Positions 7,174-34,562 of a stretch of DNA of 34,562 nucleotides are shown here, one piece after another; position 1 is the stretch's first letter; every line of letters starts with the position of its first letter. Origin of the DNA: a bacterium. GTDB taxonomy: Bacteria > UBA10199 > JADGCS01. The notes below the pieces were generated by a model, which saw only the letters and a list, made by a program, of their open reading frames with translations, was not told the origin of the DNA and made no database searches. Both the position numbers and the translations under genes were made by a program. The stretch lies in contig JAHJDR010000077.1 of NCBI GenBank assembly GCA_018812345.1, forward strand, positions 1-34,562, given 5' to 3'.

Positions 7174-7716
7174 ATGTCACGAACTGGAAAACAACCAATA
7201 ACAATCCCTGATAAAGTAAAAGTGAATCTTCAAGATATGCAATTTGTTGCGGAAGGGCCACTTGGAAAAGAAACTATTGTTATTAATTCCTTAGCACAAG
7301 TTACTGTTGAAGATAATCAAGTTATTGTTAAAAGAGTTAATGATTCTAAACACGCGCGACAAGTTCATGGCATGACACGTGCCATGCTCAGCAACGCCAT
7401 TGTAGGTGTTTCTGAAGGCTTTAAACGCAAATTAGAGATTAATGGCGTAGGTTATCGTGCTGATGTAAAAGGAAAAAATTTGGTAATGAGCTTAGGATAC
7501 TCTCATCCTATTGAAGTAGCTATCCCTGAAGGACTTACAGTAGAGGTTCCTGAAGCAGGAAAAATAGCTGTTACAGGCTCAAACAAAGAGATGGTTGGTC
7601 AATTTGCATCACAAATACGTGAATGGAGACAACCTGAGCCTTATAAAGGTAAAGGAATTAAGTATGCAGAAGAAACCATCATAAGAAAAGTTGGTAAAGC
7701 TGCTGGAGGCAAATAA
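7174..7716 (+). CDS. rplF: 50S ribosomal protein L6 (uL6)
   Basis: 180 aa from ATG 7174 ([15 protein letters not shown]...). AAGGAAG lies at 7162-7168. The track's 7084 start would translate the heptamer-repeat spacer. Confidence 0.94.
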
Positions 7717-7717
7717 A

Positions 7718-8062
7718 ATGTCATACAAAAAATTATCACCAAGACAGAAAAGAAAAATACGCATTAGAAAGAAGATTACAGGAACAACAGAAAGACCACG
7801 TCTTTCCGTATTTAGAAGTAATCGTTATCTCTATGCTCAAATTATTGACGATGTGAAACAGGCCACTTTAGTATCTGCCAACACACTGAGTGATGAAAAA
7901 GGTGCTAACAAAGAAGCGGCTGCCAAATTAGGCAAGGAACTTGCTGAAAAGGCTACACAACAAAATATTAAGCTAGTGAGCTTTGATCGCAGTGGTTATC
8001 AATATCACGGTGTGATTAAGGAACTTGCTGGTGCTGCTCGTAAAGCAGGTTTAGAGTTTTAA
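7718..8062 (+). CDS. rplR: 50S ribosomal protein L18 (uL18)
   Basis: 114 aa from ATG 7718 with [20 protein letters not shown]. It starts 2 nt after the rplF stop. Confidence 0.93.
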
Positions 8063-8075
8063 ATTAGGAGGCATT

Positions 8076-8741
8076 GTGACTCAAGAAGAGACAAAAAAAG
8101 CAACCACAGGTGAAACGCCTGTTACAGAAGAAAAAACTGAAGCCGTTCAATCTACAGAGGTTGTTTCTGAAGAGAAGGAAGTGGCTGTGAAGGTTGCAAA
8201 AGAAAATTCTACGAAAACAGCTTCTACGAAAGCAGCCAAATATACAAAAAAAGCTGCTCCCGCAGAATTTGTTTCAGACGAAGATGAAATACGAACAATT
8301 GATAGGGTCGTCCATATTAGTCGTGTAGCTAAGGTTGTAAAAGGTGGACGTCGATTTAGTTTTTCTGCTCTTGTTGTTAGTGGTAATGGCCAAGGCGAAG
8401 TTGGTTTTGGACTTGGTAAAGCTAATGAAGTGCCCGATGCCATTCGCAAAGGTTCTGAAAAAGCAAGAAGAAGCATGACGACATTTCCTGTTAATGAAAG
8501 AACCATTCCACATGATGTGATTGGTCGTTATGGCGCAGGTCGTGTTGTTATGAAAAAAGCAAGCCCTGGTACAGGTGTTATTGCTGGTGGTGCTGTTCGT
8601 GCTGTGTTTGAATCATTAGGTGTTCAAGATATTTTGACAAAATGCATTGGCACAAGCAACCCACACAATGTCGTTCGCGCGGCTTTTAATGGTCTTCAGC
8701 AGTTGAAAGACACTGAAGGAAGAAAGAATCAAAACGTATAG
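8076..8741 (+). CDS. rpsE: 30S ribosomal protein S5 (uS5) with an N-terminal extension of about 65 aa
   Basis: 221 aa. A GTG start lies 5-6 nt after AGGAGG. The conserved core begins near [22 protein letters not shown] at residue ~75. Before it is an E/K/T/A-rich low-complexity lead. Confidence 0.9.
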
Positions 8742-8753
8742 TAGAGATGCTTT

Positions 8754-8933
8754 ATGGAAAAGAAGATAAAAATAAAATACATTCATAGTCCCATTGGTCG
8801 TAAAAAAGATCAAAAAGATACAATAAGATGTTTTGGTTTTACCCGATTAAACCAAGTGAAAGAATTTCCTGATACCCCTTGTATTCGTGGTATGGTGAAG
8901 AAAATTCCTCACTTAGTTCAGGTAGTACAATAA
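8754..8933 (+). CDS. rpmD: 50S ribosomal protein L30 (uL30)
   Basis: Hand-translated because it is below the track's size cutoff. The 59 aa read [59 protein letters not shown]. It sits in the expected position between rpsE and rplO. Confidence 0.88.
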
Positions 8934-8955
8934 TTTTGAATGGAAAAGGTGTTTT

Positions 8956-9399
8956 ATGTTGCTTAATCAACTGAAGGCTCCAAAAGGTGCTAGAAAAAAC
9001 AAAAAAAGAGTAGGGCGTGGTGAATCTTCCGGTTTAGGAAAAACGAGTGGCCGTGGTCATAAAGGACAAAAAGCTCGTTCTGGTGGTTACCATAAAGTTG
9101 GTTTTGAAGGTGGTCAAATGCCTTTGAAACGACGTTTGCCCAAACGCGGATTTACTAATATTTTTAGAAAAGAATATGCTGTTATCAACGTATGTGACTT
9201 GAATCGTTATAAAGATCAGCCTGAGGTTGATTTGGTTTTAGTTGTTGGTAACAAACAGAAGAAGATCAAAAATTTAGAAGGTCTAAAAATCTTAGGAAAT
9301 GGCAATATTGATTTTGCTTTGACAGTAAAAGCAAAGAAATTTTCTCAAATTGCCAAAGAAAAGATTGAAAAGGCTGGTGGTAAGGCAATTGTCATCTAA
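8956..9399 (+). CDS. rplO: 50S ribosomal protein L15 (uL15)
   Basis: 147 aa with [26 protein letters not shown]. Confidence 0.95.
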
Positions 9400-9442
9400 G
9401 GTCAGACAAAAAGGAATAATAGGCTTTTTATAAGGAGTTGTT

Positions 9443-10759
9443 TTGTCAAATCCAATAGTGAACTTAACCAAGATGCCTGATTTGCGACGTCGCTTGGTAT
9501 ATACAGCTGTGATGCTAGCCATTTATAGATTAGGTGTTTTTATTCCCACGCCGGGAATTAATGTTGAAAAACTCAGAACCTTATTTACAGGAACTGGCGA
9601 TCAACAAACGATCTTTGAAATTATTAATTTGTTTTCTGGTGGTGCTTTAGAGCAATTCTCTATTTTTGCTCTGGGAATTATGCCCTACATTAGCGCGTCA
9701 ATTATTTTTCAATTGTTAACTGTTTCTCTTCCTGCCTTGAAAAAGTTGCAGGAGGAAGGAGAAGCTGGTCGCAATAAGATTAATCAATGGACTCGTTATG
9801 GCACAGTTGGTTTATCTCTACTCCAAGGTTTCTTTATTAGTTATGGTTTATTGAACCAAGGGTATGTGATGGGAACTGTCAGCGCACCTCGTTTCTTGTT
9901 CACAACAATGATCAGTTTAGCAGCTGGTACGTGTTTCATCATGTGGTTGGGTGAGCAAATAACAGAGCGTGGTGTTGGTAATGGTATTTCTTTGATCATT
10001 TTCTCAGGTATCGTAGCACGTATGCCCGGTGGCTTTCGTGATGCTTGGGTCAATCGAGGAGATTACTTTGGTGTATTTGGCTTTGTCATGCTTCTTGGTT
10101 TTCTCTTTTTATTGATTTCAACCATTATCTTTTTTGAGAGATGCCAAAGAAAGGTGCCCATTCATTTTGCCAAACGAATTGTAGGGAACAAGATGTATGG
10201 TGGTCAATCATCACATCTGCCTTTAAAAATAAATATGGCAGGCGTGATTCCTCCTATTTTTGCATCATCTATTTTGTTGTTTCCCGCTACGATTGCTAAT
10301 TTTAGTTCGTCAACAAAGTTTCAAGCCGTAGCTAGTTTTTTCACAACAAATTGGGTTTATGTTACTCTGTATGTCGGTGCGATTATCTTTTTCACTTATT
10401 TCTATACAGCAGTGACCTTTAACCCTTCAGATGTGGCTGATAACTTAAAGCGTAATGGTGGTTTTATTCCAGGCATTAGACCCGGGAATCCCACAAGTGA
10501 TTATTTAGATAATATCTTAACAAGAATCACATTGGGCGGTGCTTTATATTTATCTTTAGTGTGTATTTTGCCACAGTTTTTGATTTCTCAATTTAATATT
10601 CCATCAAGCTTAGCTTATACATTTGGTGGAACATCTGTCTTGATTGTTGTTGGGGTCGCGATGGATACTGTCGCTCAATTAGAGTCCCATTTAATCTCAA
10701 GAAACTATGATGGTTTCATGGGAGGGGCAAAATCAGGCCGATTTAAAGGAAGAAAGTAA
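9443..10759 (+). CDS. secY: Preprotein translocase subunit SecY
   Basis: 438 aa. A TTG start lies about 6 nt after AAGGAG. It is a multi-pass membrane protein with ALGIMPYISASIIFQLL and GISLIIFSGIV motifs. Synteny supports the call. Confidence 0.95.
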   Translation: MSNPIVNLTKMPDLRRRLVYTAVMLAIYRLGVFIPTPGINVEKLRTLFTGTGDQQTIFEIINLFSGGALEQFSIFALGIMPYISASIIFQLLTVSLPALKKLQEEGEAGRNKINQWTRYGTVGLSLLQGFFISYGLLNQGYVMGTVSAPRFLFTTMISLAAGTCFIMWLGEQITERGVGNGISLIIFSGIVARMPGGFRDAWVNRGDYFGVFGFVMLLGFLFLLISTIIFFERCQRKVPIHFAKRIVGNKMYGGQSSHLPLKINMAGVIPPIFASSILLFPATIANFSSSTKFQAVASFFTTNWVYVTLYVGAIIFFTYFYTAVTFNPSDVADNLKRNGGFIPGIRPGNPTSDYLDNILTRITLGGALYLSLVCILPQFLISQFNIPSSLAYTFGGTSVLIVVGVAMDTVAQLESHLISRNYDGFMGGAKSGRFKGRK

Positions 10760-15975: not shown

Positions 15976-16003
15976 TTTTCTGATAAAATAAAATTATAAC
16001 ATG

Positions 16004-16036
16004 AACCCGGTATTACTAAGTGATACCGGGTTTTTT
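16004..16036 (+). terminator. Rho-independent terminator of the ribosomal superoperon
   Basis: A 10-bp perfect stem pairs AACCCGGTAT (16004-16013) with ATACCGGGTT (16023-16032) around a 9-nt loop. It runs into a T6 tract at 16031-16036, 29 nt after the rplQ stop. Confidence 0.85.
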
Positions 16037-16160: not shown

Positions 16161-17552
16161 CTAAGAAGTTTGCTTATGCACAATAATTTTCTGATTTACA
16201 AATGTATAGAAAAGTAGGTGTTTGATACGATAGTTAAATATCACAAATCCCATAAGAAGCGAGATAAGACAGCTGCCAAAATACCCATAACCATACCAAG
16301 AAAATCCTAGATAAATAGAAAGACGTGCAAAAACAATATTAGTGACGGCAAAGATAATAGACATAATCAGGGCATCTGTTCTAAAATCAAAGTACAAAAT
16401 GATAATTAAGAGTGTCTGTAGCAAGGCTTGGAGAAACGTTGCTAAAATGGCAATTTGAAAAACACCTAAGTTAACGGCAGACATGCTGAGATAGTCATAA
16501 ATAACTGGCGAGAGTCCTAAGCCAACCATAGTGATAGTGCCTTGGAGGACAAGGAGACGTCCCAAACTTAATTGAAGATCTTTAATGATGTTTTTCCGGC
16601 GTTCTTCAATGGCAAAATAGGGGTGTTTGTTTAATATAGAAAGAAAATATTTCTGATAATGTATGTAAAAACTTGTTTCAATGCGTACCGTAAACATAGC
16701 CAAAGAGGGAACAATAAAGAGGTAGGCCAAAAAGACTGGTGTGTCATAAACATAGGATGCATGCAGAAAGTTGTGAACCTTTTCATTCGTTTCCGGGGTA
16801 AACCAGAAGACAAATTTATCACCCCAGACACCAATATTATAGAAGGTTGCAATAAAGGCCAGAGAGGCAAAGCGTTTAAAGTATGATATAAAATACCATT
16901 CAACACGCATTCGATAGTCAAATTCTGTGAATATCTGGAGAACAAGTAAAATGACTAATACAACTTGGCCCATCGTAAATCCTGAAATAAGTCCCATGAG
17001 ACCGTAGTCAGAGCAAAGAAAACGGCCTGCCAACACACTAATGCTGGCACCAATGAGAAAAGAAATAAACAATCGGTGGAATTCCTTTGCTGCTGACAGC
17101 ACAATCATGGCAATCCAAAGAATGCCGATATTGACAAAGAGGACAATAGCCATGATTTCTGTTCCAAAATCAAGATCAAGGTACAGAATGCCTACAAACC
17201 CAATAATAGCGTGTAGGATCATAGAGAGTATGGTCATACCAACAAAAGAGGGCACAAGGGCCTTGTAGTCCTTGAGGAATATCTTATCTGCCATGTAGCG
17301 TGTGATAATCATTTGCGCTGGAGACGAGGTAACAAGTGATACACCATAAATGTAAACGACGAGTGTGCGAAAAATCATGACATCTAATGAACTTACGCGA
17401 TCATTTGCTACCCAACTGAGTAAGGCGATAGAAAAAATCGTACATAAAAGAGGGCCTGCAGAAACCATAGCAGCATAGGCATAGCCTTCTAAGAGGTTTG
17501 TATAAGAGTTTTTCGAGAGGATTTTTTCTAATCTAAATCCAATTCCAGCCAT
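16161..17552 (-). CDS. pelG: PelG-like polysaccharide export / synthase-complex membrane protein
   Basis: 463 aa and about 12 hydrophobic helices. The N-terminus MAGIGFRLEKILSKNSYTNLLEGYAYAAMVSAGP matches my memory of the PelG MAGIGF... start. It is the last gene after pelF, as in pel operons. Confidence 0.8.
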   Translation of the reverse strand: MAGIGFRLEKILSKNSYTNLLEGYAYAAMVSAGPLLCTIFSIALLSWVANDRVSSLDVMIFRTLVVYIYGVSLVTSSPAQMIITRYMADKIFLKDYKALVPSFVGMTILSMILHAIIGFVGILYLDLDFGTEIMAIVLFVNIGILWIAMIVLSAAKEFHRLFISFLIGASISVLAGRFLCSDYGLMGLISGFTMGQVVLVILLVLQIFTEFDYRMRVEWYFISYFKRFASLAFIATFYNIGVWGDKFVFWFTPETNEKVHNFLHASYVYDTPVFLAYLFIVPSLAMFTVRIETSFYIHYQKYFLSILNKHPYFAIEERRKNIIKDLQLSLGRLLVLQGTITMVGLGLSPVIYDYLSMSAVNLGVFQIAILATFLQALLQTLLIIILYFDFRTDALIMSIIFAVTNIVFARLSIYLGFSWYGYGYFGSCLISLLMGFVIFNYRIKHLLFYTFVNQKIIVHKQTS

Positions 17553-17645: not shown

Positions 17646-19112
17646 CTAAATATATTCCTCATACAACGTTCTATACGATACAATCATATCTCTAAAATTA
17701 TATGATGTTCGTGTTCGTTCCAGACCTGCTTTTGCCATTTTTTGATAGAGTTCTTCATCTGAAAGAATTTTAACGACAGCGTCAGCTGTTTTTTCAGGAG
17801 AATGGAACTCCGTGATAATACCACTTTCTCCGAGCATTCTATCATCAGCATCTTTTCCTTCAAGAAGCTCGCGACACGAGCCAACATCTGTTGCCACAAT
17901 GGGAATGCCACAAGCATTGCCTTCAAGAATAACCAATGGTTGGGCTTCACTGATGCTTGTTAATACGAGCAGATCAATATTTTTTAAATAGTTTCGGATG
18001 TCTACGTGGCCTGTAAAAATAACATGATTACTGAGACCCATGGTTTTAATGAGTAAGCTACACTCTTGATAATATTGTGATTCCTCGTCTTGGGGACCTA
18101 AAATGAGAATTCTAATATCCTCTATTCTTTGTGAAATAATTTTACAGGCTTTGATGAAGGTTTTAACATCTTTAATAGGCACAACGCGGCCAATAAAGGC
18201 TATCGTGTTTCTTTTCTTTTTTTCAGGACGACTATTGGCAATGTCTTCATACATTTTTACGTCAACGCCGTTGGGAATAATGGAAATTTTATGTGCTTCT
18301 GCACCGTCCTCAATTTCAGAGATCTTATTTCCGTTGTAGAGTGTGGTGATTTCATCAGCAAACATGTACGTGATTTTGCTCATGACCTCAAAGTAATGCA
18401 TCCACCAATCTTTAAAAAAACCAAACTCTGATATTGCTTTAATGTATTCTGTTTCTTTTTCGTAAAGCCAGCTTGCTTGCGCAATTTCTATGCGTCTTTC
18501 TTTAGTATAAATACCATGCTCTGTAGCGATCATATTGCTGTTGAACTTTATTTTAGCAAGACTCGCCATGATGCCAGCATATCCAGTAGAAATTGTATGA
18601 TAGAGAGGTGCTGGTGGAATTTCAGCTTTAATGAGTTGCATGATAGGCAGAAAAGTAAATCGATAATTCCAAAAGAAGTCGAGAAACGAAACGCTAGGAT
18701 CACCTTCTTCATAGAGTTTTCGTGTGGCTTTCCAAAAATCTCGTGAATAAAAGGAGTAAGTCATATTGAGCTTTTGTCGTTCTTTCAGGCGTTCTAAAAG
18801 GAATAGCTCAATGCTAGATTTGTCTTGGAGTTCTATGCCTTGAAGAAAGAGCCTAAAGAAATCGAAAATTTTAGGTGTTTTCTTGTAATGGCGTTCTTGA
18901 AAATGAAAATCGTGTAAATATATATGACAAATACTTTCTACATTAGTGGGAACATTATAACGTTCAATTTTTGTATCATTAGGTGTGGGCATAATGGAGA
19001 TAAGCGAAAACTTTATTTCAGGCATGGCTGTAATCAACTGATGAACCCACGTGGACACGCCACCACGGACATAGGGATATGTTCCTTCGAGCACGAGACA
19101 AACATCACTCAT
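17646..19112 (-). CDS. pelF: PelF-like GT4 glycosyltransferase
   Basis: 488 aa. The N-terminal DVCLVLEGTYPYVRGGVSTWVHQLI is the PelF-type N-domain hallmark. The C-terminal GT4 E-x7-E region is SEAQPLVILEGNACGIPIVATDVG. It has an ATGA overlap with the upstream gene. Confidence 0.85.
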   Translation of the reverse strand: MSDVCLVLEGTYPYVRGGVSTWVHQLITAMPEIKFSLISIMPTPNDTKIERYNVPTNVESICHIYLHDFHFQERHYKKTPKIFDFFRLFLQGIELQDKSSIELFLLERLKERQKLNMTYSFYSRDFWKATRKLYEEGDPSVSFLDFFWNYRFTFLPIMQLIKAEIPPAPLYHTISTGYAGIMASLAKIKFNSNMIATEHGIYTKERRIEIAQASWLYEKETEYIKAISEFGFFKDWWMHYFEVMSKITYMFADEITTLYNGNKISEIEDGAEAHKISIIPNGVDVKMYEDIANSRPEKKKRNTIAFIGRVVPIKDVKTFIKACKIISQRIEDIRILILGPQDEESQYYQECSLLIKTMGLSNHVIFTGHVDIRNYLKNIDLLVLTSISEAQPLVILEGNACGIPIVATDVGSCRELLEGKDADDRMLGESGIITEFHSPEKTADAVVKILSDEELYQKMAKAGLERTRTSYNFRDMIVSYRTLYEEYI

Positions 19113-21097
19113 AAAACCCCCTCTTCCACAAAAGATTTAGCCAGGCTCTTGGCAATTTCGCCAGACCTAAGCCCCTGGTTTTCCTCAGCAATTTTCACCA
19201 AATCATGAATGATGCTCAAGTCCTTAATAGGAATAAGCAGTTCAATAACTAAACTGCGGACACGATCATCATCAACACGCAAAAGGGCAATGAGTTGTTT
19301 TTGAAGTTGTTTCACGCGGGTCAGTGATGATTTCTTGAGTATGAGAGCCAAAACAGTTCTTTGCCATCCTAGTGATTGTGATGCCAATGTTGTTGTAAAT
19401 TGTTGTGCGACCTCAGTTTTTGTGAAGAATATACGGTACACGTTATCGGCAATGACTTTATGTTCGTTGGCATCTGTGATGTTTGTGTACTTCTCAAAAA
19501 GAATAAGACTTAAATTATGATAAAATGAAATATCTAATGTTATAGGGATGTACCTAATGATATCCTCTGTTTTGCTGAAATCACAATTCCTAATAAAATT
19601 AAAAAGAATATCAGAGTAGTGTTCACAATAATAAGAAAAATTATTTTGAATAACTTCGAGTTCTGAGGTTGTTTGAGATTTTTTATAACAGGAGATAAGA
19701 AAATAGAGTGTTTCTTGTGATGGGGCAAATTCAAGCACTTGTAGGGCAAGATAGCGAACATTAATATTGGTTTCTTTTTCTAGAATTCTCATGATTGTAT
19801 CCAAAAGCTCGTCTGGGGCGAGTCCGAGGCCACGACGTCTGATGAGATACTTTAGGATAATTTGTTTCTGTGTTGGTGAAAACGCTTCATGGCTGACCGT
19901 TTCAAGAATTTTCGATTTGTCATTAATGCGCCACATTTTTGTGAGTGCCATGGCTGCTGCATAAGCACTTGATAAGCCTTCTTTCAATAATAGGTACACA
20001 GTATCATTATCTTCTTGGCGCCACGTTTTACTTAAAGCTACGAGAGCATTGTAAGAACTGGAAGGATCTTTGAAAATAAACTGTGTAATGACCTCGAGAT
20101 CTTGATGATCAGCGATATGGCCAAGGGCTTGTAAACAGGCTTGTATAATGGTTTGATCCTTGCTTTTTAACAGCATTTTTCGGAGATATATTTTATGGGC
20201 ATCATCATCAGATCCAAATTTGCCCAGTCTGAATATTATTTCAGCTTTAATGTGTTTGTCTGAAGTGTTGCGTAACTTAAAAAGATCATCATGCTTAAGA
20301 ACGGATTGTAAGCGATCGAGAGATCGAGAGGCAATAAGCCTCGCTTTTTGATCTTTATCTTGTGTGATAATCTTGAGTAAAGGTTTAATGAGTTTGGCAC
20401 TGGGGATGAGACCAGATATTTTGATGAGTTCATAGCGTGTTTCGACATCCTCCTCTTTTCTTATAACCTTTAGGAAATGACGAACAGCTTTTTTTGGTCG
20501 TCTGAGAGATATTGCGTGCGCGGCCTCTAGTTTAATCTTTTTATCTTTACTGTACATGAGTTTGGTGAATGTTTTCCAGGGAACTTGATAAATCCATTGA
20601 GAAAGGACTTCCACAGCCTTTAGGATAAGAGTTGGGTCTTTGGCCTTAAGGGCTTTGCTAATTGTTTTGGCGCTAAAGGGATCATTGATGCGTCCAAAAG
20701 CTTTTATGATTTCTTGGCAAATTGGTTCGTCATCAATAGAAAATATTTCATTAAGGAAGGGTATGGCGAGTGGATCACCTAAGATTCCCAGAAGCTCAAT
20801 AGCTGTAACCAGGACGTTAGTGTCAGGACTTGCTAATTGATTGATGAAGAAATTTGCCTTCTCCGTTTTATGTGACCAGCTCAAAATACGTTTGATTTCA
20901 AATTTAATGGCTTTTTCTTCAATGAAGTAGATAAGGAAGATTTTAGCTAAGTCTAAATCAGCATATTGATCATTCAGAGATTGGCATTGGTATATTTTTT
21001 CTCCAATAGTGAGTTCGGAAAATTCTTTTTCAAAGGCGACCAGTTGTTCCAAAGATGATGTTTCCGAGAGGATAATATGTTTTATGTGTTTTTTCAT
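19109..21097 (-). CDS. Cytoplasmic HEAT/armadillo-like repeat protein with no canonical Pel counterpart
   Basis: 662 aa with no TM segment or signal peptide. It contains repeated HEAT-like modules, for example VTAIELLGILGDPLAIPFLNEIFSIDDEPICQEIIKAFGRINDP and KDPTLILKAVEVLSQ. There is an internal duplication, SSYNALVALSKTWRQEDN versus SAYAAAMALTKMWRINDK. The start abuts the pelE-like stop (TAAATG), and the stop overlaps the pelF start (ATGA). Confidence 0.7.
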   Translation of the reverse strand: MKKHIKHIILSETSSLEQLVAFEKEFSELTIGEKIYQCQSLNDQYADLDLAKIFLIYFIEEKAIKFEIKRILSWSHKTEKANFFINQLASPDTNVLVTAIELLGILGDPLAIPFLNEIFSIDDEPICQEIIKAFGRINDPFSAKTISKALKAKDPTLILKAVEVLSQWIYQVPWKTFTKLMYSKDKKIKLEAAHAISLRRPKKAVRHFLKVIRKEEDVETRYELIKISGLIPSAKLIKPLLKIITQDKDQKARLIASRSLDRLQSVLKHDDLFKLRNTSDKHIKAEIIFRLGKFGSDDDAHKIYLRKMLLKSKDQTIIQACLQALGHIADHQDLEVITQFIFKDPSSSYNALVALSKTWRQEDNDTVYLLLKEGLSSAYAAAMALTKMWRINDKSKILETVSHEAFSPTQKQIILKYLIRRRGLGLAPDELLDTIMRILEKETNINVRYLALQVLEFAPSQETLYFLISCYKKSQTTSELEVIQNNFSYYCEHYSDILFNFIRNCDFSKTEDIIRYIPITLDISFYHNLSLILFEKYTNITDANEHKVIADNVYRIFFTKTEVAQQFTTTLASQSLGWQRTVLALILKKSSLTRVKQLQKQLIALLRVDDDRVRSLVIELLIPIKDLSIIHDLVKIAEENQGLRSGEIAKSLAKSFVEEGVL

Positions 21098-22099
21098 TTA
21101 ATTTAGCCAGTATTTCATGATATTTTTATTCAGTCCTTTTAACCCTTTTTGTTCTGCAAGTGCTATAAGCTCTTTTAATTCAGTGTATTTTCTTTCTTCA
21201 AGAAGCAGAGCCCATTGAAGTTCATGATATTGGGGTACTTTGTCATTGTTTTGTATACAGCGATTGATGCATTCCTCGGCCTTCTCAAATTTTTTAAGAG
21301 AAAAATAGGTTTTAGCTCTTATGAAGGTGAGATCAGAGGTTTCCTGTATGTTATCAATTATTTTGATAATTTCCTCATAGTAATAAGATGCGGAGACTTT
21401 ATCGAGCAGGTTACTTGTGGCATAGGCCAGAAATACATTTACAAGTTCTTCCCCTAGTTTTTGGTCATGCGGATCTTGTTCAACTTTTAAGGTTAGCGTT
21501 TTGATCTGTCTGGCAAAATCATCTTCAATCTTCCCTAAAATCCCAGCGGCAAGTAAACGAATTTCAATTTCTTTATCCATGAGGGCCAGCATAAGACCAT
21601 TGATCGCTTTTCTGCTTTCAATGCCTCCTAAAAGCTTTACAGCACTTTTCTTTAAAGATGTTTCACTGCTTTTGAAAATATCAACAAAAGGAGCAATGTC
21701 AGCACGGTCCATGACCTCAATTTGACGTGATCGATTGAGAATCTGCTCATAAACTTTGGCATCAGGAACATTTATGACATCTTCCACTATGGGGGGTGGT
21801 CGCGAATCACTTAGCGCTTGAGCCATATAGATAATTATGGAACTGTAAATACCAAAGACAGGCATTGTGAGACATATCGTTGTGGCATAAACAAGCCATA
21901 AGTTGTGATTCTTTTTTCTGTATGCATGTTCATAGGTTAGAAAGAAAAAGCCCGTGATACAGACTAAAGAGCTTACGGCATGGTAATACAGGGCATCTTT
22001 CAGGGTCACAAAATTATTGTGAAAGAGGATGTCAATCACAGGGATCGTGAGCGCGATAGAAACAAGAAAGAGGAAATATGCTATTATTTTGCGTGCCAT
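21098..22099 (-). CDS. pelE: PelE-like inner-membrane scaffold protein (N-terminal TM helices plus a helical-repeat cytoplasmic domain)
   Basis: 333 aa; PelE is of similar size, about 330 aa as I recall. N-terminal hydrophobic helices include IIAYFLFLVSIALTIPVIDILF, VSSLVCITGFFFLTY and LWLVYATTICLTMPVFGIYSSIIIYM. A HEAT/TPR-like helical domain follows (SAVKLLGGIESRKAINGLMLALMDKEIEIRLLAAGILGKIED). The position directly after the pelD-like gene fits. The call rests on architecture and synteny only. Confidence 0.6.
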   Translation of the reverse strand: MARKIIAYFLFLVSIALTIPVIDILFHNNFVTLKDALYYHAVSSLVCITGFFFLTYEHAYRKKNHNLWLVYATTICLTMPVFGIYSSIIIYMAQALSDSRPPPIVEDVINVPDAKVYEQILNRSRQIEVMDRADIAPFVDIFKSSETSLKKSAVKLLGGIESRKAINGLMLALMDKEIEIRLLAAGILGKIEDDFARQIKTLTLKVEQDPHDQKLGEELVNVFLAYATSNLLDKVSASYYYEEIIKIIDNIQETSDLTFIRAKTYFSLKKFEKAEECINRCIQNNDKVPQYHELQWALLLEERKYTELKELIALAEQKGLKGLNKNIMKYWLN

Positions 22100-22100
22100 A

Positions 22101-23501
22101 CTAAAAACCTAATGCTGACAACATGTCATGGGGTCCTTCCATTGTATTTGGGTTATAGGGAACAACAATAACAGAGTCCTCAAATATTTGATTTGTTAGG
22201 ACTTGATCGAGTTTATATTCTTTTATTTTATCAATAATTTTAGTTTTAATACTTTCTGCTTGTGGGCCTGATGTGCACGAGAGCAATAGTGTAAAAGGTG
22301 TTTTGTCGTTGGGCGAATTTGCTAAGATATCAAACTCTCTGAGCTGGTAGTTAATGAGAGAAACAAGCGATGCTATGATGGCCTGCTTTTTATCATCTGG
22401 CAGTGTCATGAGTTTTGGCCAGTTAAAACCCACAAGAGAGAGAGGGAGCATATATAGTTTTGATCGCTTATATTCTTCTTCAAGGCGTGCTGATAAATAG
22501 TGATATTTATACAAGCCTTCTATGTCGCCTGTAATTTGCAGATCTTTAATATCTTGAAACGCATGAGCTGTATTCAGTGATGAGGCTGCTAAACCACAAA
22601 TAATACGAGCTGTTTGAATCGTTGAGTCCGTTAGTTTGATGAGAGGTATTTTCTCAATGCTGGCAACACCATATACTTTGTTATCCATGCCAATAAGAGG
22701 AATTGCCAAAACAGTATCTCCTAAAACATCTGTTTCTAATTGATCAGCTGTTTTCTTTTTAAACAGAATATCTTTGAGTGAATATACTTGTGCTTTTTTT
22801 GCCGCTAGACCAATCAGCCCCTTGCCTATGCGATAGCTTTCAGGTCGTTTATAGTAATCTTTCCAACCCATTGATTGATAAAGCTTAAGATCCTGGTCAG
22901 TGTTTGTGTAATAGGAGCATTCCTCTGCATGAAGATATTTTTGAAAACATTCTAAAAGACCAGTGTAGACAACGTTCGGATCACGTGAATTAAGTTTTTC
23001 AATAATGTCATTAAGTGTGGTGATTGTTTCTTGGGATGTGGCCACATCAACCGAGAGATCTTTATGGGCTTCTTTGATGATCTTGTTTTCTGTCATGAGG
23101 TTATTGTTCAGATTTTCCAGTTCCTCAACACGGGCTGTAAGAAAATCTTCTCTCAGAATAAAGGTGGTTTTAATTTCACCTATAAGAAAACCAATGAGAA
23201 AGAAGAGAAAAGGAAATCGTAAGATCCAAACATTGTCATAGAAATAATCTAGACCTTGCGTGATGAAAAGATATACAAGAAAGGTAAGAGCCGCAAGGAT
23301 GCTGGCTAATAAAGCGCCGCCGCGGCCGTAGCGAGCGGCTATACCAATGACGATAATCCAATACGGGTGAGGGGTGATGTCAACAAAGGCAGGATGCTCT
23401 GGAAAGAGAAAAACATTGAATAGAATGAGGCCTAACAATCCTACAAAGGTTTCAAAATAGAAAAATCGAGTGCGTTTTATTTTAACAAGTCGTTCGTACA
23501 T
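22101..23501 (-). CDS. pelD: PelD-like c-di-GMP receptor (4 TM, coiled coil, GAF, degenerate GGDEF)
   Basis: 466 aa. It has four N-terminal hydrophobic helices and a coiled coil (ARVEELENLNNNLMTENKIIKEAHKDL). A GAF-like segment reads IGKGLIGLAAKKAQVYSLKD...LAIPLIGMDNKVYGVASIE. The C-terminal domain opens like GGDEF (YLSARLEEEYKRSKLY) but lacks GG(D/E)EF, having SPNDK instead. It keeps an RxxD motif (REFD, aa 388-391). Confidence 0.75.
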   Translation of the reverse strand: MYERLVKIKRTRFFYFETFVGLLGLILFNVFLFPEHPAFVDITPHPYWIIVIGIAARYGRGGALLASILAALTFLVYLFITQGLDYFYDNVWILRFPFLFFLIGFLIGEIKTTFILREDFLTARVEELENLNNNLMTENKIIKEAHKDLSVDVATSQETITTLNDIIEKLNSRDPNVVYTGLLECFQKYLHAEECSYYTNTDQDLKLYQSMGWKDYYKRPESYRIGKGLIGLAAKKAQVYSLKDILFKKKTADQLETDVLGDTVLAIPLIGMDNKVYGVASIEKIPLIKLTDSTIQTARIICGLAASSLNTAHAFQDIKDLQITGDIEGLYKYHYLSARLEEEYKRSKLYMLPLSLVGFNWPKLMTLPDDKKQAIIASLVSLINYQLREFDILANSPNDKTPFTLLLSCTSGPQAESIKTKIIDKIKEYKLDQVLTNQIFEDSVIVVPYNPNTMEGPHDMLSALGF

Positions 23502-23505
23502 AAGT

Positions 23506-23883
23506 TTATGAGGTGATGATTTCTCTCACCTTTTCCAATAAGCGATAAGGTTCAAATGGTTTTGAAGCGATATAGGCTTTTAAGTTATTTAAAAAATCTA
23601 TTTCATCATTCACGAGTTGCCGACTGCTCAAAACCAATACAGGAAGTTTTTCTAATTTATCTTCTTTCCGAATAGCTTCTAAAAGCTGAAACCCATTGAG
23701 CTTTGGCATCATGAGATCAATGATGACCATGGCATAATCTTGGTTTAAGAGTTCTGCGACGGCTAGAGACGAGTCATCGAGGGTTTTGACCTCAAAACCA
23801 CCATTAGTGAGCAAAAACTCAATAACATAACTGATGTCTGGTTCATCATCAACATGAAGGATTTTTTTAACTATTTCTGACAT
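23506..23883 (-). CDS. Stand-alone CheY-like response-regulator receiver
   Basis: 125 aa with the receiver hallmarks intact: VDDE acidic pair, IIDLMMP phospho-acceptor Asp, VLSS, and SKPF Lys. There is no output domain. GAGGT lies 8 nt upstream. The gene sits 11 nt after the pelB-like stop and 4 nt before the pelD-like start. Confidence 0.88.
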   Translation of the reverse strand: MSEIVKKILHVDDEPDISYVIEFLLTNGGFEVKTLDDSSLAVAELLNQDYAMVIIDLMMPKLNGFQLLEAIRKEDKLEKLPVLVLSSRQLVNDEIDFLNNLKAYIASKPFEPYRLLEKVREIITS

Positions 23884-23894
23884 AATTACTACCT

Positions 23895-26789
23895 CTAAAA
23901 ACGATAAAGTGTTTGTACAAAAAATTCTTGGTATTGACCTGATGTCAATTGAAGGCTTTCATTAGCAAATCCGTAGTAGCCTAAAATCTCAAATTTCTTT
24001 GAGACAATGTATCTATTTGTGAAACTAAAACCATAAAGATCTAAACCAAAAATCGATAAATTTCTTAAATGATCATGGCCGACGTAAGCCCTGGCTTCTG
24101 TGCGCCATTTATCAGTCCAGTCATGATAAAGTTCAATAGAAAACTCATTGCGCGCAGATTCTTCAATAAGAGGGATGAGATGACTGTACTCATTAATCTC
24201 ATGAAACTTTTGGTAAGTAAAATCATAACCAAATCTTATTTCAGGCTTTCTGTTAACGATGAGATCAGCACTCAAACGGACAACGTCTTCACGGCCAAAA
24301 AGATCTCCCATATCTGTATCTGTTTTGTTTGAATCAACAGCATACCAATTGCTTGTGTACTGTGCGCTGACAAAAGCCTTGGTTGCTATGGCTTTTTCAT
24401 AGGTTATCTGAAAGCCACTTTTGTTCGTATCAAAGTAAACAACTGAAGCAGGAAGGGTGAGGCGTTCGGTAACAAATAGATCAACATTAAATCGACCAAG
24501 CTTTGGATGCTCCCAGTTGCCAATAAGGTGTCCTGATAGCGTGTACTGTGCATCGACGATTTTATGTGTCGCGATGGCAGTGAGATCAAAGAGGGGGTTA
24601 GGACGGAAATTAGCGGTTGTTTTAACGGTGTTAGCATAAATAGCAAAATCAGAATCAAAGTTTACTACGTTTGCTTTGTCGAGATTAAGGCCATATTCAA
24701 ATTCAAACCACCAGGCATTACTGAGAGGATGGTGATAGAGGAAATAGGGTTCAACACTATCATCATTTCCCATACGTACCCAACGCACACCCGCAGCCAG
24801 ATAAGGGTGTGTGAGCTTGAAAATATCATCATGTGTTTTTTGAAGCTCTGTATTCTCAGGGTAGTGATCGCGTAATTCTTCAAAAAGTGGCAGTGCTGAA
24901 AAATACTCTTTCATTGTGCTGTATAAATAGGCGAGCTCTGTTTTTACCGATAGATCAAGGGGGGTTTGTTTGAGTAATTTCTTGAGAATCTTTTCTGCCT
25001 TATAATATTCAAAGCGTAGATTGTGGATACGCGCCTTTGATTTGAGTAAGGCATAATTATCTGGGTATTCTTTTAAATAACGTTTAACAAGGCTATAGGC
25101 TTTTTCCGCTCTGTTTACATCAGCTAATGTGTCAATATAAGCTGTCATGAGTTCTATGCTTTTTGGATCTTTTTTGAGTAACGTCATAAAGAGCTGATCT
25201 GCCTTATCATGTTGATCTAGGAGTGTAAGTATGCGTGCTTTAGTTGTGAGGATTAAGAAGTCTGTTTCCTGATCAGAGATCAGGGTAAGGGCTTTATTGT
25301 AGTATGATTGTGAGATGGCTTTTCTGTTTTGTGATCTGTAGAGTTCTGCCAGACGATAGTGAGGGTAATAATCTTTTGGTCGTTTTGTGGCATAGATTTG
25401 CATGTATTTTTCAGCTTTTAGAGTACGGTTTTGTGTAAAGTAAATATCACCTAGATATTTTAAAATATCGGGATCTGAAGCATTATTTTCTTCAAGATAG
25501 GTGAAAACTTTTAGCGCTTTTTCAAGTTTGTTAATCCAGAAATATCGTTCTCCCAACATTTTCAACAAGGAATAATTTTTTGATTGCCAAGCTGTGCTGG
25601 CCAAAAGATCATTGGCTTTATCTTCCTTTCCGTCTCGATCATACATTTCAACCATCAGAAGAACATATTCTTGATTGTGCGGATATTTGTGAATCAGTTT
25701 TGTGAGTACATTATAAGCTGTATGATAGGCTTTAATATCAAGGAGCATCCATAAAAGTTTTTTATTGTTGTCTTCATTTTCTGGATCTTTTTTAAAACGC
25801 GCTAGGTAAATAGGAATGAGTTTATCTTTTACATTGTTCCATTCATATAGTTGAACAAGCGTTTGATAAAAATAATCGTTTTCATCTGTCGTTTTCACAT
25901 GTTTTTCGAGAAAAGCTATGGCCATCTTTTGTTGGTTTGTGCTGATCATCCACTCGACATACGATTTTTTGAGGTCACCTTTAGACGCATAAGTTTTCAC
26001 CCATTTTTCATACCAATTATTAGCTTCAATAAACTTTTTGTTATTGGTTTCAAAACCGATCAGTCTTTGCCAATGTTTTGGGTTGTCAGCATAGTGCGTG
26101 ATATTTTTTATGAGATATTTATGCGCTTTCTCTAGTTTATTTGAAAAACTAGCCAAGACAAGTAAACGATCTAGGGCAAATTCCTCTTCACTATTATTAT
26201 CAAGAATGTTTTCTAAGAGAGTCATTGTTGCCCAAAGGTCTCCTGTCTTTTCATGGAGGCTAATCAAGTCATTTGTGATTTGTTGATTCCCTTCGCTAGG
26301 ATCTGTGATCTTTTGCCAGTTAAGAATAGCAATGGCCTCTTTGTATTCTTGATCAAGCAAGTAAAAGGCATAGAGCTTATTTAAAATTTGTTTTCCAGCA
26401 TTGTCTTTAAAATAAATGTCTTTTTTGATTCTGTATTTGTACCATTTTCTGTAGATTTCTTTTTCTTTCTCTGGCTGTTCGGTCCAGGAATAAAAACGAG
26501 CGGCTTCGACAAAATAACTTTCTTTTTCTTTTTTGTTAATGAGCTTATCAAAGAATTGACCAGCCTTAATGTGATCACCAACATTTTCAAAACTTTTTGC
26601 TAGGTATTGAATAGCGCGATAGTTGTTTGGATTTTTTTCGTAAAGTTCTGAAAAGGCTTCAATGGCTTTGTCAGAATCTTTGCTTTGATAATACATCCAA
26701 CCCTTTCGCATTTTTGTTGGATGTAAAATGAGAGCTACAAAAAGTACAAGACAGGTAAAGAGGAGAAGTTGCCACCATTTAATTCCCAT
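23895..26789 (-). CDS. pelB: PelB-like protein (N-terminal anchor, long TPR array, C-terminal outer-membrane beta-barrel)
   Basis: 964 aa with an N-terminal hydrophobic anchor WWQLLLFTCLVLFVALIL. About 600 aa are TPR-like, with A/Y/L periodicity such as AIEAFSELYEKNPNNYRAIQYLAKSFENVGDHIKAGQFF. The C-terminal ~280 aa have alternating beta-strand character and end ...FFVQTLYRF, an aromatic OMP terminus. Confidence 0.78.
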   Translation of the reverse strand: MGIKWWQLLLFTCLVLFVALILHPTKMRKGWMYYQSKDSDKAIEAFSELYEKNPNNYRAIQYLAKSFENVGDHIKAGQFFDKLINKKEKESYFVEAARFYSWTEQPEKEKEIYRKWYKYRIKKDIYFKDNAGKQILNKLYAFYLLDQEYKEAIAILNWQKITDPSEGNQQITNDLISLHEKTGDLWATMTLLENILDNNSEEEFALDRLLVLASFSNKLEKAHKYLIKNITHYADNPKHWQRLIGFETNNKKFIEANNWYEKWVKTYASKGDLKKSYVEWMISTNQQKMAIAFLEKHVKTTDENDYFYQTLVQLYEWNNVKDKLIPIYLARFKKDPENEDNNKKLLWMLLDIKAYHTAYNVLTKLIHKYPHNQEYVLLMVEMYDRDGKEDKANDLLASTAWQSKNYSLLKMLGERYFWINKLEKALKVFTYLEENNASDPDILKYLGDIYFTQNRTLKAEKYMQIYATKRPKDYYPHYRLAELYRSQNRKAISQSYYNKALTLISDQETDFLILTTKARILTLLDQHDKADQLFMTLLKKDPKSIELMTAYIDTLADVNRAEKAYSLVKRYLKEYPDNYALLKSKARIHNLRFEYYKAEKILKKLLKQTPLDLSVKTELAYLYSTMKEYFSALPLFEELRDHYPENTELQKTHDDIFKLTHPYLAAGVRWVRMGNDDSVEPYFLYHHPLSNAWWFEFEYGLNLDKANVVNFDSDFAIYANTVKTTANFRPNPLFDLTAIATHKIVDAQYTLSGHLIGNWEHPKLGRFNVDLFVTERLTLPASVVYFDTNKSGFQITYEKAIATKAFVSAQYTSNWYAVDSNKTDTDMGDLFGREDVVRLSADLIVNRKPEIRFGYDFTYQKFHEINEYSHLIPLIEESARNEFSIELYHDWTDKWRTEARAYVGHDHLRNLSIFGLDLYGFSFTNRYIVSKKFEILGYYGFANESLQLTSGQYQEFFVQTLYRF

Positions 26790-33406: not shown

Positions 33407-34562
33407 TATGCTGACTGTTTTAGCCCACCCCCCCAAACTACCCGTTATCCAAACAACAACGCCTATAAATTCAGCGACACAGCAACCTGGTTGTACTGAT
33501 CTCGTTGTGACAACAACATCTCGAGTGCTTGATTTAGCGCGACCTCAACAAACAACAGCTTTAGTGCGTGCTACGCGTTTTATGGGAGAGCATAAGAAAC
33601 CATTAATTATTGGTGCTACAAGCCTCTCAGCTGCTTTTGCTGCAGGATTTGGGGCTGAAGCATTGATTAACGCAGGTATTTTAACCTCAACAGCAGCTCA
33701 TCTTGCAGGATTAGCTGTAACGGGAGTTGTGGGAGGGGCAACAACAGCACTTCTCTATGGTGGGAAACACATTGCTAGGGCGTATCAGGCAACCCGGGGA
33801 ACAGTGCTTGCAAACAGATTTCTAGAGACACATAAACCAACACAAGAACAAGCTAAGCAATTACAAGAAGCACACCACAATGCCATGCCTTATGTGTGCG
33901 AAAGAATTACTGAACGCATTTTTACCACTGATCCTGAAGATCCCTACAAGTTAGCTGATGAACTTAACAAGCTCACTTTGTTTAATGGATATGGCGTTCA
34001 TGTATTGAAAGAGATTGTAGTTAAAGCGCTGAGTGAGGAAATAGCACGTCCAGATATTGCTCAAAAAGCACTCCTCGCGCTTATTAAAATAGATTCGGAA
34101 GAATCTCGAGATGTCTTGGCGTTTTTGAGGACAGCGGCTGAGTTAGATATTTCTTTAGATCGTGATAAGATGAAATTTGAACTTTTTTTAGGAGCAGTAA
34201 GAGTACATAGAGAATTTACACCTGAGCAAATGGCAACCATCATCCATTGGGGTGGTTTGGGCCATACTTTACAACTTAGGGAAGATGAAATTGTAGCTCT
34301 ATGGCCTCATCTTACAGATCAGGCTAAAGCAAATGTAGAACAAGCGTTATCAGAAGCCTGTGGTAAACTTATCATGGCTAGAAATATGCAAGGCATGGGC
34401 GGTATTAGCAATACAGTCTTAAAAGATAATATAAAAACATATTTATTATTTCTGCAAAAACAATTTGGTCAAGACCTTTTCAGGAGTGTGTCGCACTATA
34501 TTTATGTTAGGGATGCTGCTCAACGAGTTGGGGTTTTGCGTTATGCAGAAGCCTTAAGTGAG
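33407..34562 (+). CDS. Hypothetical membrane-anchored protein, 3' end outside the window
   Basis: The ORF is not in the supplied track because it runs off the window. I verified line by line that the frame is open from ATG 33401/33407 to 34561, giving 385+ codons. AAGGA lies 6 nt before ATG 33407. Residues ~65-118 form a Gly/Ala-rich bilobed hydrophobic block (PLIIGATSLSAAFAAGFGAEALINAGILTSTAAHLAGLAVTGVVGGATTALLYGG). The remainder is helical and soluble-looking with no family I recognise. Confidence 0.6.

Follow-up and report, generated by a model that had tools for sequence, protein, structure and literature searches.

Pel is among the most widespread of the biofilm polysaccharides, and to our knowledge the only post-translational control of its production so far recognized is the binding of c-di-GMP to PelD. 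PelC is essential in Pseudomonas. It is a periplasmic outer-membrane lipoprotein, arranged as a ring around PelB (PMC12141448). An early survey of pel loci used PelC as a BLAST query (PMC7890745), so that any loci without it would have been missed; the operon survey of Bundalovic-Torma et al. describes pel operons in which loci were gained or lost and PelB was split, and never mentions a response regulator (PMC7112194).

Two other kinds of system are relevant to the locus described here. The eps locus of Myxococcus xanthus encodes a single-domain receiver, EpsW, which binds the phosphoglycosyl transferase EpsZ directly and so activates it post-translationally (PMC12802240, PMC4671073). WspR, PleD, and DgcR each combine a receiver with a GGDEF-fold module bearing an RxxD I-site.

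The window, by which is meant the whole 34.5-kb stretch of DNA analyzed, has a G+C content of 38%. A ribosomal-protein operon on the plus strand fills its first 16 kb, and is followed by a pel locus of ten closely packed genes, all on the minus strand. At the operon head is RR1 (29820..30263), the second of two single-domain receivers (PF00072, 9.8e-29); translation probably begins at the ATG at 30188, for a protein of 122 aa. PelA is split between the next two genes, one encoding the GH114 hydrolase part (28984..29820; PF03537, 3e-23) and the other the deacetylase and C-terminal part (26884..28971), a 695-aa protein matching residues 439-858 of P. aeruginosa PelA (PDB 9cgy, 2.3e-78). The 964-aa PelB-like protein (23895..26789) consists of an N-terminal membrane anchor, TPR repeats (multiple Pfam matches), and a C-terminal region whose ending, ...VQTLYRF, resembles the aromatic beta-signal of outer-membrane proteins. 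Then come the principal subject of this study, the CheY-like receiver RR2 (23506..23883); a PelD-like protein of 466 aa (22101..23501); a PelE-like membrane protein of 333 aa (21098..22099); a HEAT-repeat protein of 662 aa (19109..21097; HEAT_2, 5.2e-28) between pelE and pelF; the glycosyltransferase PelF (17646..19112; NF038011, 2.7e-146, with DUF3492 and GT1); and PelG (16161..17552; PF16933, 3.1e-123).

Because PelF, PelG, the split PelA, and the fold of the PelD-like protein are all recognizable, this is a genuine pel locus, but a diverged one. PelB, PelD, and PelE are too far removed from their Pseudomonas counterparts to be matched by sequence only: a search of PelD and PelB of this kind against the solved Pseudomonas structures gave no match, and a fold search was needed for PelD. 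The PelD-like protein, with an N-terminal membrane helix bundle, a GAF domain, and a degenerate GGDEF domain, is not itself matched by any Pfam family. A profile built from 31 orthologues matches GAF (3e0y, 1.6e-7) and GGDEF (6zxm, 1.4e-6) structures, with 6d9m also among the matches, and when an AF2 model (pLDDT 81) was compared with the PDB by Foldseek, the best match was P. aeruginosa PelD (4etz_A, 9e-9). Its RxxD motif is R388-E-F-D391, in which the arginine is nearly invariant and the aspartate invariant, and which aligns with the diguanylate cyclase inhibitory site; the protein thus appears to keep the predicted c-di-GMP site within its degenerate GGDEF domain. The PelE-like protein was assigned by position and by its hydrophobic N-terminal helices; its cytoplasmic helical-repeat domain has weak HEAT_2 and TPR matches, and homologues occupy the same position in 30 loci. 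The HEAT-repeat protein has neither a signal peptide nor a membrane segment, which indicates that it is cytoplasmic.

Set against pelABCDEFG of P. aeruginosa, the window therefore shares PelF, PelG, the PelA domains, a PelB-like TPR protein, and a PelD-like protein with an RxxD motif, all in canonical order; it differs in having no PelC, in the splitting of PelA, and in having three extra cytoplasmic genes, those for RR1, RR2, and the HEAT-repeat protein. The same ten-gene order is found in the fetched loci L001 (GCA_043818055.1), L003 (GCA_018645265.1), and L004, all of which have an RR1 orthologue (121-123 aa) at the same position.

RR2 is fitted closely between its neighbors. The original prediction gave its distances as 11 nt after pelB and 4 nt before pelD, and these are exact: the PelB-like ORF ends at 23895, 11 nt from RR2, and the RR2 stop codon is 4 nt from the PelD-like ATG at 23501. 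The RR2 ATG is preceded, at a distance of 9 nt, by a GAGG ribosome-binding site that overlaps the PelB stop codon. A scan of the operon for promoters and terminators returned counts at chance level, with none near RR2.

That RR2 is a 125-aa single-domain receiver with all its phosphorylation residues in place, as first proposed, was borne out on every point. It matches Pfam Response_reg (PF00072, 3.4e-19) over residues 8-120, with the full model covered, and the solved structure that it matches best is that of RR468, a single-domain response regulator (1.3e-15). Its AF2 model (pLDDT 92.3) has the (beta-alpha)5 fold, with five strands and five helices, and Foldseek comparison gave TM scores of 0.86-0.90 to CheY4, RR468, and CheY. 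The acidic pair D12/D13, the phospho-acceptor D56, S86, and K108 are all intact. Among 30 RR2 orthologues, D12, D13, D56, and K108 are invariant, the residue at position 86 is S or T, and the motifs DLMMP..GF and KPFEPxRLLEKVRE are invariant or nearly so; D56 and K108 are also kept in more distant receivers linked to pelD. RR2 is thus an ordinary receiver by fold and chemistry, and looks phosphorylatable. Conservation is not even along the protein: it averages 0.71 overall, and reaches 0.82 in alpha1, 0.98 in the beta5-alpha5 loop, and 0.82 in alpha5. Raised conservation of the kinase-docking surface, made up of alpha1 and the beta5-alpha5 loop, and of alpha5 would fit a receiver with one fixed kinase and one fixed target.

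An aromatic switch residue (Y or F) on beta5 is common in receivers, if not obligatory. At the corresponding position of RR2 (105, three residues before the conserved Lys), members of the window's clade have I, V, or M, while the receivers of four other pelD-linked loci (L006, L044, L048, and L012, described below) have F or Y. Since the aromatic residue is not conserved, the usual Y/F-T coupling may not operate in RR2 of the window's clade.

The N-terminus of RR2, MSEIVKKILHVDDE, has no hydrophobic segment, signal peptide, or lipobox, and the protein is accordingly predicted to be cytoplasmic. With the CheY and Cle proteins it shares a stand-alone (beta-alpha)5 receiver fold of 120-130 aa (TM 0.85-0.88 to CheY), but it differs from them in its non-conserved switch position, its C-terminus, and its surroundings. 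A Cle-like role in binding c-di-GMP was considered and rejected, as RR2 ends with alpha5 and has no Arg-rich C-terminal extension. A role as a chemotaxis CheY was likewise set aside: no che or flagellar genes were found in the 34.5-kb window, or in L001, L003, or L004.

No output or DNA-binding domain was found in either RR2 or RR1, which excludes direct transcriptional control by these proteins. The original prediction had placed the phosphorylation input at the synthase complex rather than at transcription, and with no DNA-binding domain in either receiver, a post-translational phosphorylation input is the most reasonable reading. No histidine kinase is linked to the locus in the window, and none is conserved near related loci; a Cache-HAMP kinase 3.7 kb downstream of pelG is found in L007 only, and the genes on either side of the locus are not conserved.

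RR2 orthologues were searched for among 5.8 billion proteins. The search yielded a tight set of about 51 (E <= 1e-28, 47-91% identity), after which the next match drops to 1e-14. A similar search with the PelD-like protein found 33 homologues, and in 19 receiver/PelD pairs both members come from contigs of the same distinctive length. For a wider view, diverse PelF representatives were aligned and the resulting profile scanned against one genome per GTDB species, yielding 80 pel loci from many phyla; ORFs were called locally and labelled by HMMs or phmmer built from the window's proteins.

Eleven loci have a receiver directly upstream of pelD. Besides the window, these are L001, L003, L004, L006, L007, and L008, which like it are labelled “Pseudomonadota” or “Deltaproteobacteria” or have no taxon; L044 (Bacteriovoracales) and L048 (Bacteriovoracaceae), in the phylum Bdellovibrionota; L012 (“bacterium AUK210”); and L041 (Planctomycetota). 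In 10 of the 11 the gap between receiver and pelD is between -8 and +4 nt, which indicates translational coupling. In L006 (GCA_040960375.1) the receiver is only 34% identical to RR2, but again precedes PelD-PelE-HEAT-PelF. A partial contig designated “Bdellovibrio sp.” (L009) has a PelF of 63% identity, and its sequence ends before pelD. In the PelF-seeded sample, the receiver is present in 6 of 51 loci with recognizable PelD and PelF. The original prediction had allowed that receiver insertions might prove to be common in pel loci and already described; they are indeed common within this subfamily (about 51 orthologues and 11 loci, in several differently labelled lineages), but no published description of receivers in pel loci was found in the literature.

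All 11 loci with a receiver before pelD also have a gene of ~650 codons for a HEAT-repeat protein between pelE and pelF. This gene is the hallmark of the pel subfamily carrying RR2; it is found without a receiver in two loci from Elusimicrobia, L010 and L011. Most HEAT-type loci fall into two adjacent groups in a neighbor-joining tree of PelF, with L012 sister to the window's clade and L041 apart on a long branch. RR2 has diverged at much the same pace as its neighbors: its identity to the L001 orthologue is 66%, vs. 64% for PelF, and in a mirror-tree comparison its divergence tracks that of PelF, PelD, and the HEAT-repeat protein (r about 0.92-0.93). These results suggest that RR2 is an integral, co-inherited part of a distinct pel subfamily with the order receiver-PelD-PelE-HEAT-PelF-PelG. 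Measured with the RR2 profile, however, the receivers of L044, L048, and L012 do no better than RR1, so that a single origin of all pelD-linked receivers is uncertain. The L012 receiver is also degenerate, with E-L in place of D-D and G in place of S/T, and is nevertheless at the same position.

What RR2 does there can be framed by comparison with EpsW and EpsZ, the closest experimentally supported precedent. EpsW and RR2 are both stand-alone receivers with no output domain, encoded within an exopolysaccharide locus, with an unlinked kinase, and for both direct binding at the cytoplasmic face of a membrane biosynthetic machinery is proposed. The pathways differ: EpsW belongs to a Wzx/Wzy pathway and its partner is a phosphoglycosyl transferase, whereas RR2 would act in synthase-dependent Pel production, with its own c-di-GMP receptor. 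The EpsW system also includes a large monotopic phosphoglycosyl transferase (EpsZ) and a CheA-like kinase (DifE); neither the window nor related loci encode proteins of these two types. RR2 and EpsW are not orthologues: RR2 is best matched by RR468-, PhoB-, and CheY-type receivers at 26-33% identity, and the likeness is in mode of action only.

In our estimation the chances are about even that RR2 is a phosphorylation-responsive regulatory subunit of an inner-membrane complex of PelD, PelE, the HEAT-repeat protein, PelF, and PelG, where phosphorylation, partner, and direction of effect are what we infer. The grounds for this reading are the coupling to pelD, the co-divergence with pel genes, the conservation of the kinase-docking face and alpha5, and the fact that L012 has kept a degenerate receiver, which speaks for binding to the complex, or a structural part in it, rather than for a pure phosphate sink. 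As a sequence of events, an unlinked histidine kinase would phosphorylate D56 of RR2; phospho-RR2 would then bind the Pel synthase complex of the inner membrane on its cytoplasmic side, most likely at the juxtamembrane coiled coil of PelD together with its GAF/degenerate-GGDEF module, with the HEAT-repeat protein as the alternative target; and this binding would tune polymerization after translation, alongside c-di-GMP at the RxxD site of PelD. As PelD keeps the RxxD motif, phosphorylation would add to c-di-GMP control rather than replace it.

PelD is favored as partner because its gene is adjacent, because the order of receiver, GAF, and GGDEF mirrors that in fusion proteins, and because it has the highest, though weak, partial correlation with RR2. 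Fused REC-GGDEF and REC-GAF-GGDEF proteins exist, with DgcR (6zxm) and 6d9m, both matched by the PelD profile, as cases in point, and the succession of receiver and PelD genes here corresponds to the REC-then-GGDEF domain order of WspR, PleD, and DgcR, the last of which (6zxm) is the best sequence match for the GGDEF-like region of PelD. Such fusions may by analogy be taken as generic domain-fusion support for coupling of a receiver to a GGDEF module. [quoted passage not shown] A broader proposal, possible but advanced more tentatively than the regulatory-subunit reading, is that these loci constitute an unrecognized Pel subfamily with a cytoplasmic module of receiver and HEAT-repeat protein, in which two-component phosphorylation is wired into PelD and polymerization needs or integrates both Asp phosphorylation and c-di-GMP.

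The HEAT-repeat protein is the main alternative partner, because it always co-occurs with the receiver. Phospho-RR2 would in that case bind the HEAT solenoid rather than PelD, and the solenoid would scaffold or gate PelF and PelG; we consider this rather unlikely, if still the best of the alternatives. It is consistent with the presence of the HEAT gene in 11 of 11 receiver-pelD loci, and with the cytoplasmic location of the HEAT-repeat protein, the same as that predicted for RR2. The mirror-tree partial correlations also bear on it: those with RR2 are 0.39 for PelD, 0.30 for HEAT, and 0.01 for PelE, and that between PelD and HEAT is 0.47, but the RR2 values are weak and not independent, and too weak to choose a partner. 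Before this correction RR2 correlates about equally with PelD, HEAT, and PelF. The genetic arrangement points the other way: RR2 always adjoins pelD, two genes separate it from the HEAT gene, and L010 and L011 have the HEAT gene but no receiver. Nor was a REC-HEAT fusion found, there being no PF00072 domain among 20 HEAT matches; the same is true of the 33 PelD-like matches, and there is no receiver inside the long “PelD” ORFs of L010, L027, and L075.

The presence of two receivers in one operon, RR1 and RR2, only 30% identical to each other, raises another alternative: the two could belong to one branched pathway in which RR2 serves as a phosphate sink or shuttle, modulating the phosphorylation level of another regulator instead of binding Pel proteins. 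Receivers of the sink type, DifD of the Dif system among them, are known from chemosensory pathways controlling EPS, and the highly conserved alpha1 kinase-docking face of RR2 would suit one. A sink would not, however, need a conserved coupling to pelD across differently labelled lineages; the L012 receiver, having lost its acidic pair and S/T, would be useless as one; and RR1 is absent from L044, L048, and L012, where the receiver upstream of pelD is present. A sink or shuttle is thus improbable, and less likely than action through the HEAT-repeat protein.

Slightly less probable again is that RR2 controls a local source or sink of c-di-GMP, a diguanylate cyclase or phosphodiesterase feeding PelD, and leaves the synthase itself untouched. 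PelD does keep its RxxD site, and of the three closest relatives of RR2 outside pel loci that were examined, two are in kinase/receiver operons with c-di-GMP-type enzymes (HK-RR-EAL in L005, and RR-hybrid HK-GAF-HD_5 in L087). These two contexts are anecdotal and therefore weak evidence, though, and the third relative (L088) is in an unrelated context; neither the window nor the portion conserved among related loci has an active GGDEF, EAL, or HD-GYP gene.

The place of RR2 between pelB and pelD is where pelC is found in P. aeruginosa, and the original prediction held both that no PelC or lipobox-bearing ORF is present in the locus and that the receiver fills the pelC position. The first of these was upheld by each of the searches made. 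No credible lipoprotein emerged when all window ORFs of at least 50 aa were scanned for a lipobox; a PelC HMM that had been started from canonical loci of Gammaproteobacteria and extended by iteration to 24 members had no match among the window ORFs; and on a six-frame translation of the window its best E-value was 0.94, vs. 1.5e-52 and 4e-43 for the positive controls L012 and L041.

The second is true of the gene order here, but not as a statement of function or descent, since PelC and a receiver coexist in L012 and L041, where the order is PelB-PelC-receiver-PelD-PelE-HEAT-PelF. The PelC of L012 is a 190-aa ORF that matches P. aeruginosa PelC over its full length (9h80_C, 1.7e-5) and the PelC HMM at 2e-52; neither it nor the L041 protein is related to RR2. 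The coexistence of the two in L012, which is sister to the window's clade, suggests that the receiver belongs with pelD and that PelC was lost separately. Its absence from that clade looks secondary; on the simplest history, the ancestral locus would have had PelC as well as the receiver, and pelC would have dropped out of it along the lineage of the window. The adjacency of RR2 and PelB would then reflect a pelC loss unrelated to RR2, rather than a replacement. The PelB-like protein of the window was also compared with that of the PelC-bearing L012 locus: the two are collinear over residues 309-945, including the C-terminal 300 aa, and the difference in length is in the N-terminal TPRs. A lost PelC-docking region was sought in this comparison and none was discernible, so that it is uninformative on this point.

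That RR2 replaces PelC is accordingly very improbable, its gene-order position in a window without PelC notwithstanding, as it has no signal peptide or lipobox and is predicted to be cytoplasmic while PelC forms a periplasmic lipoprotein ring (PMC12141448), as L012 and L041 encode both proteins between PelB and PelD, and as many pel loci have neither.

On this last point, 27 of the 80 loci in the survey have a recognizable PelC, as judged by home-made ORF calling and PelC model in flanks of up to 10 kb, so that PelC elsewhere in any of these genomes is possible. Both PelC and a receiver are missing from at least 16 loci with 7 kb or more of sequence upstream of pelD; most of these belong to Alphaproteobacteria, Myxococcota, SAR324, Riflebacteria, and Acidobacteria. 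By this survey, pel loci without PelC are common in diderm bacteria, and one may ask how the polymer leaves through PelB where there is no PelC ring. L012 and L041, with both PelC and the receiver, and their PelC-less sisters provide a natural comparison.

The pel subfamily with a receiver before pelD is little studied, and its partnership of receiver, PelD, and HEAT-repeat protein is unusual, conserved, and apparently undescribed. A conserved receiver coupled to pelD, always in company with the HEAT-repeat protein, suggests that the Pel synthase receives a second input, based on phosphorylation. If RR2 does act as a regulatory subunit there, the idea drawn from EpsW and EpsZ would be extended from Wzx/Wzy to synthase-dependent pathways; and were two-component phosphorylation wired directly into PelD, as in the more tentative proposal, no earlier case would be known of a phospho-relay with direct input to exopolysaccharide machinery of the synthase-dependent kind.

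The HEAT-repeat protein encoded between pelE and pelF in the window (19109-21097, minus strand; 662 aa) is cytoplasmic. A HEAT gene inserted at this point defines a pel subfamily, whose loci are labeled as Bdellovibrionota, Elusimicrobia, Omnitrophota, and Planctomycetota, or belong to unclassified MAGs. The gene diverges faster than its neighbors, with 33-43% identity where PelF has ~63%. In a distant member of the receiver/HEAT subfamily (L006), a GlnE-like adenylyltransferase gene (7455-10091; 878 aa) lies between pelF and pelG.

PelA is encoded in two pieces in the window (together 26884-29820, minus strand), the GH114 hydrolase by one gene and the deacetylase/C-terminal part by another; four other loci (L044, L048, L035, and L046) have the GH114 gene relocated downstream of pelG. 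PelB is a single 964-aa gene in the window and two successive TPR genes (~420-460 and ~570-620 aa) in several close relatives: L003 (5852-9105), L004 (6401-9375), L007, and L008. The iterated PelC profile used to label survey ORFs had matches within far longer ORFs (536-685 aa) in four loci: L019 (5614-7671), L016 (5701-7704), L041 (3302-4912), and L047 (8322-9968). These could be genuine fusions of the PelB C-terminus with PelC, or could reflect over-extension of start codons in high-GC contigs.

At the downstream end of the operon, a strong hairpin (16003-16033, plus strand), with a 14-bp stem followed by a T-run, sits between the converging ends of rplQ on the plus strand and pelG on the minus strand; it probably acts as a terminator, either shared by the two genes or bidirectional. 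Toward the other end of the window, a long open frame (33392-34562, plus strand), spanning 390 aa or more, continues past the 3′ end.

The single-domain receiver at the operon head, RR1 (29820-30263, minus strand; PF00072, 9.8e-29), probably starts in fact at 30188. It shares just 30% sequence identity with RR2, the receiver upstream of pelD. Orthologs of RR1, 121-123 aa long, occupy the same place in the operons of L001, L003, and L004. Two alphaproteobacterial pel loci (L074 and L085), which are without RR2 and without the HEAT gene, have a comparable receiver of 122 aa ahead of pelA. The pelD-linked receiver of L012 (5257-5616) is degenerate, with the acidic pair D-D replaced by E-L and the Ser/Thr by G; the phospho-acceptor Asp and the Lys are retained, and it may be a pseudo-receiver.

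Two of the three closest relatives of RR2 examined outside pel loci are single-domain receivers adjoining c-di-GMP-type enzymes, one in an HK-RR-EAL operon (L005, 6386-9637) and one in an RR-hybrid HK-GAF-HD (HD_5) operon (L087, 2287-5895). In Pel-like loci of candidate division KSB1 (L017, 5315-9878; L018, 9532-9939; L021, 9576-9974), a receiver is encoded directly 5′ of pelF, and L017 additionally encodes a hybrid histidine kinase of 675 aa that combines HisKA-HATPase with receiver domains. The KSB1 loci are an independent instance of two-component genes within pel loci.
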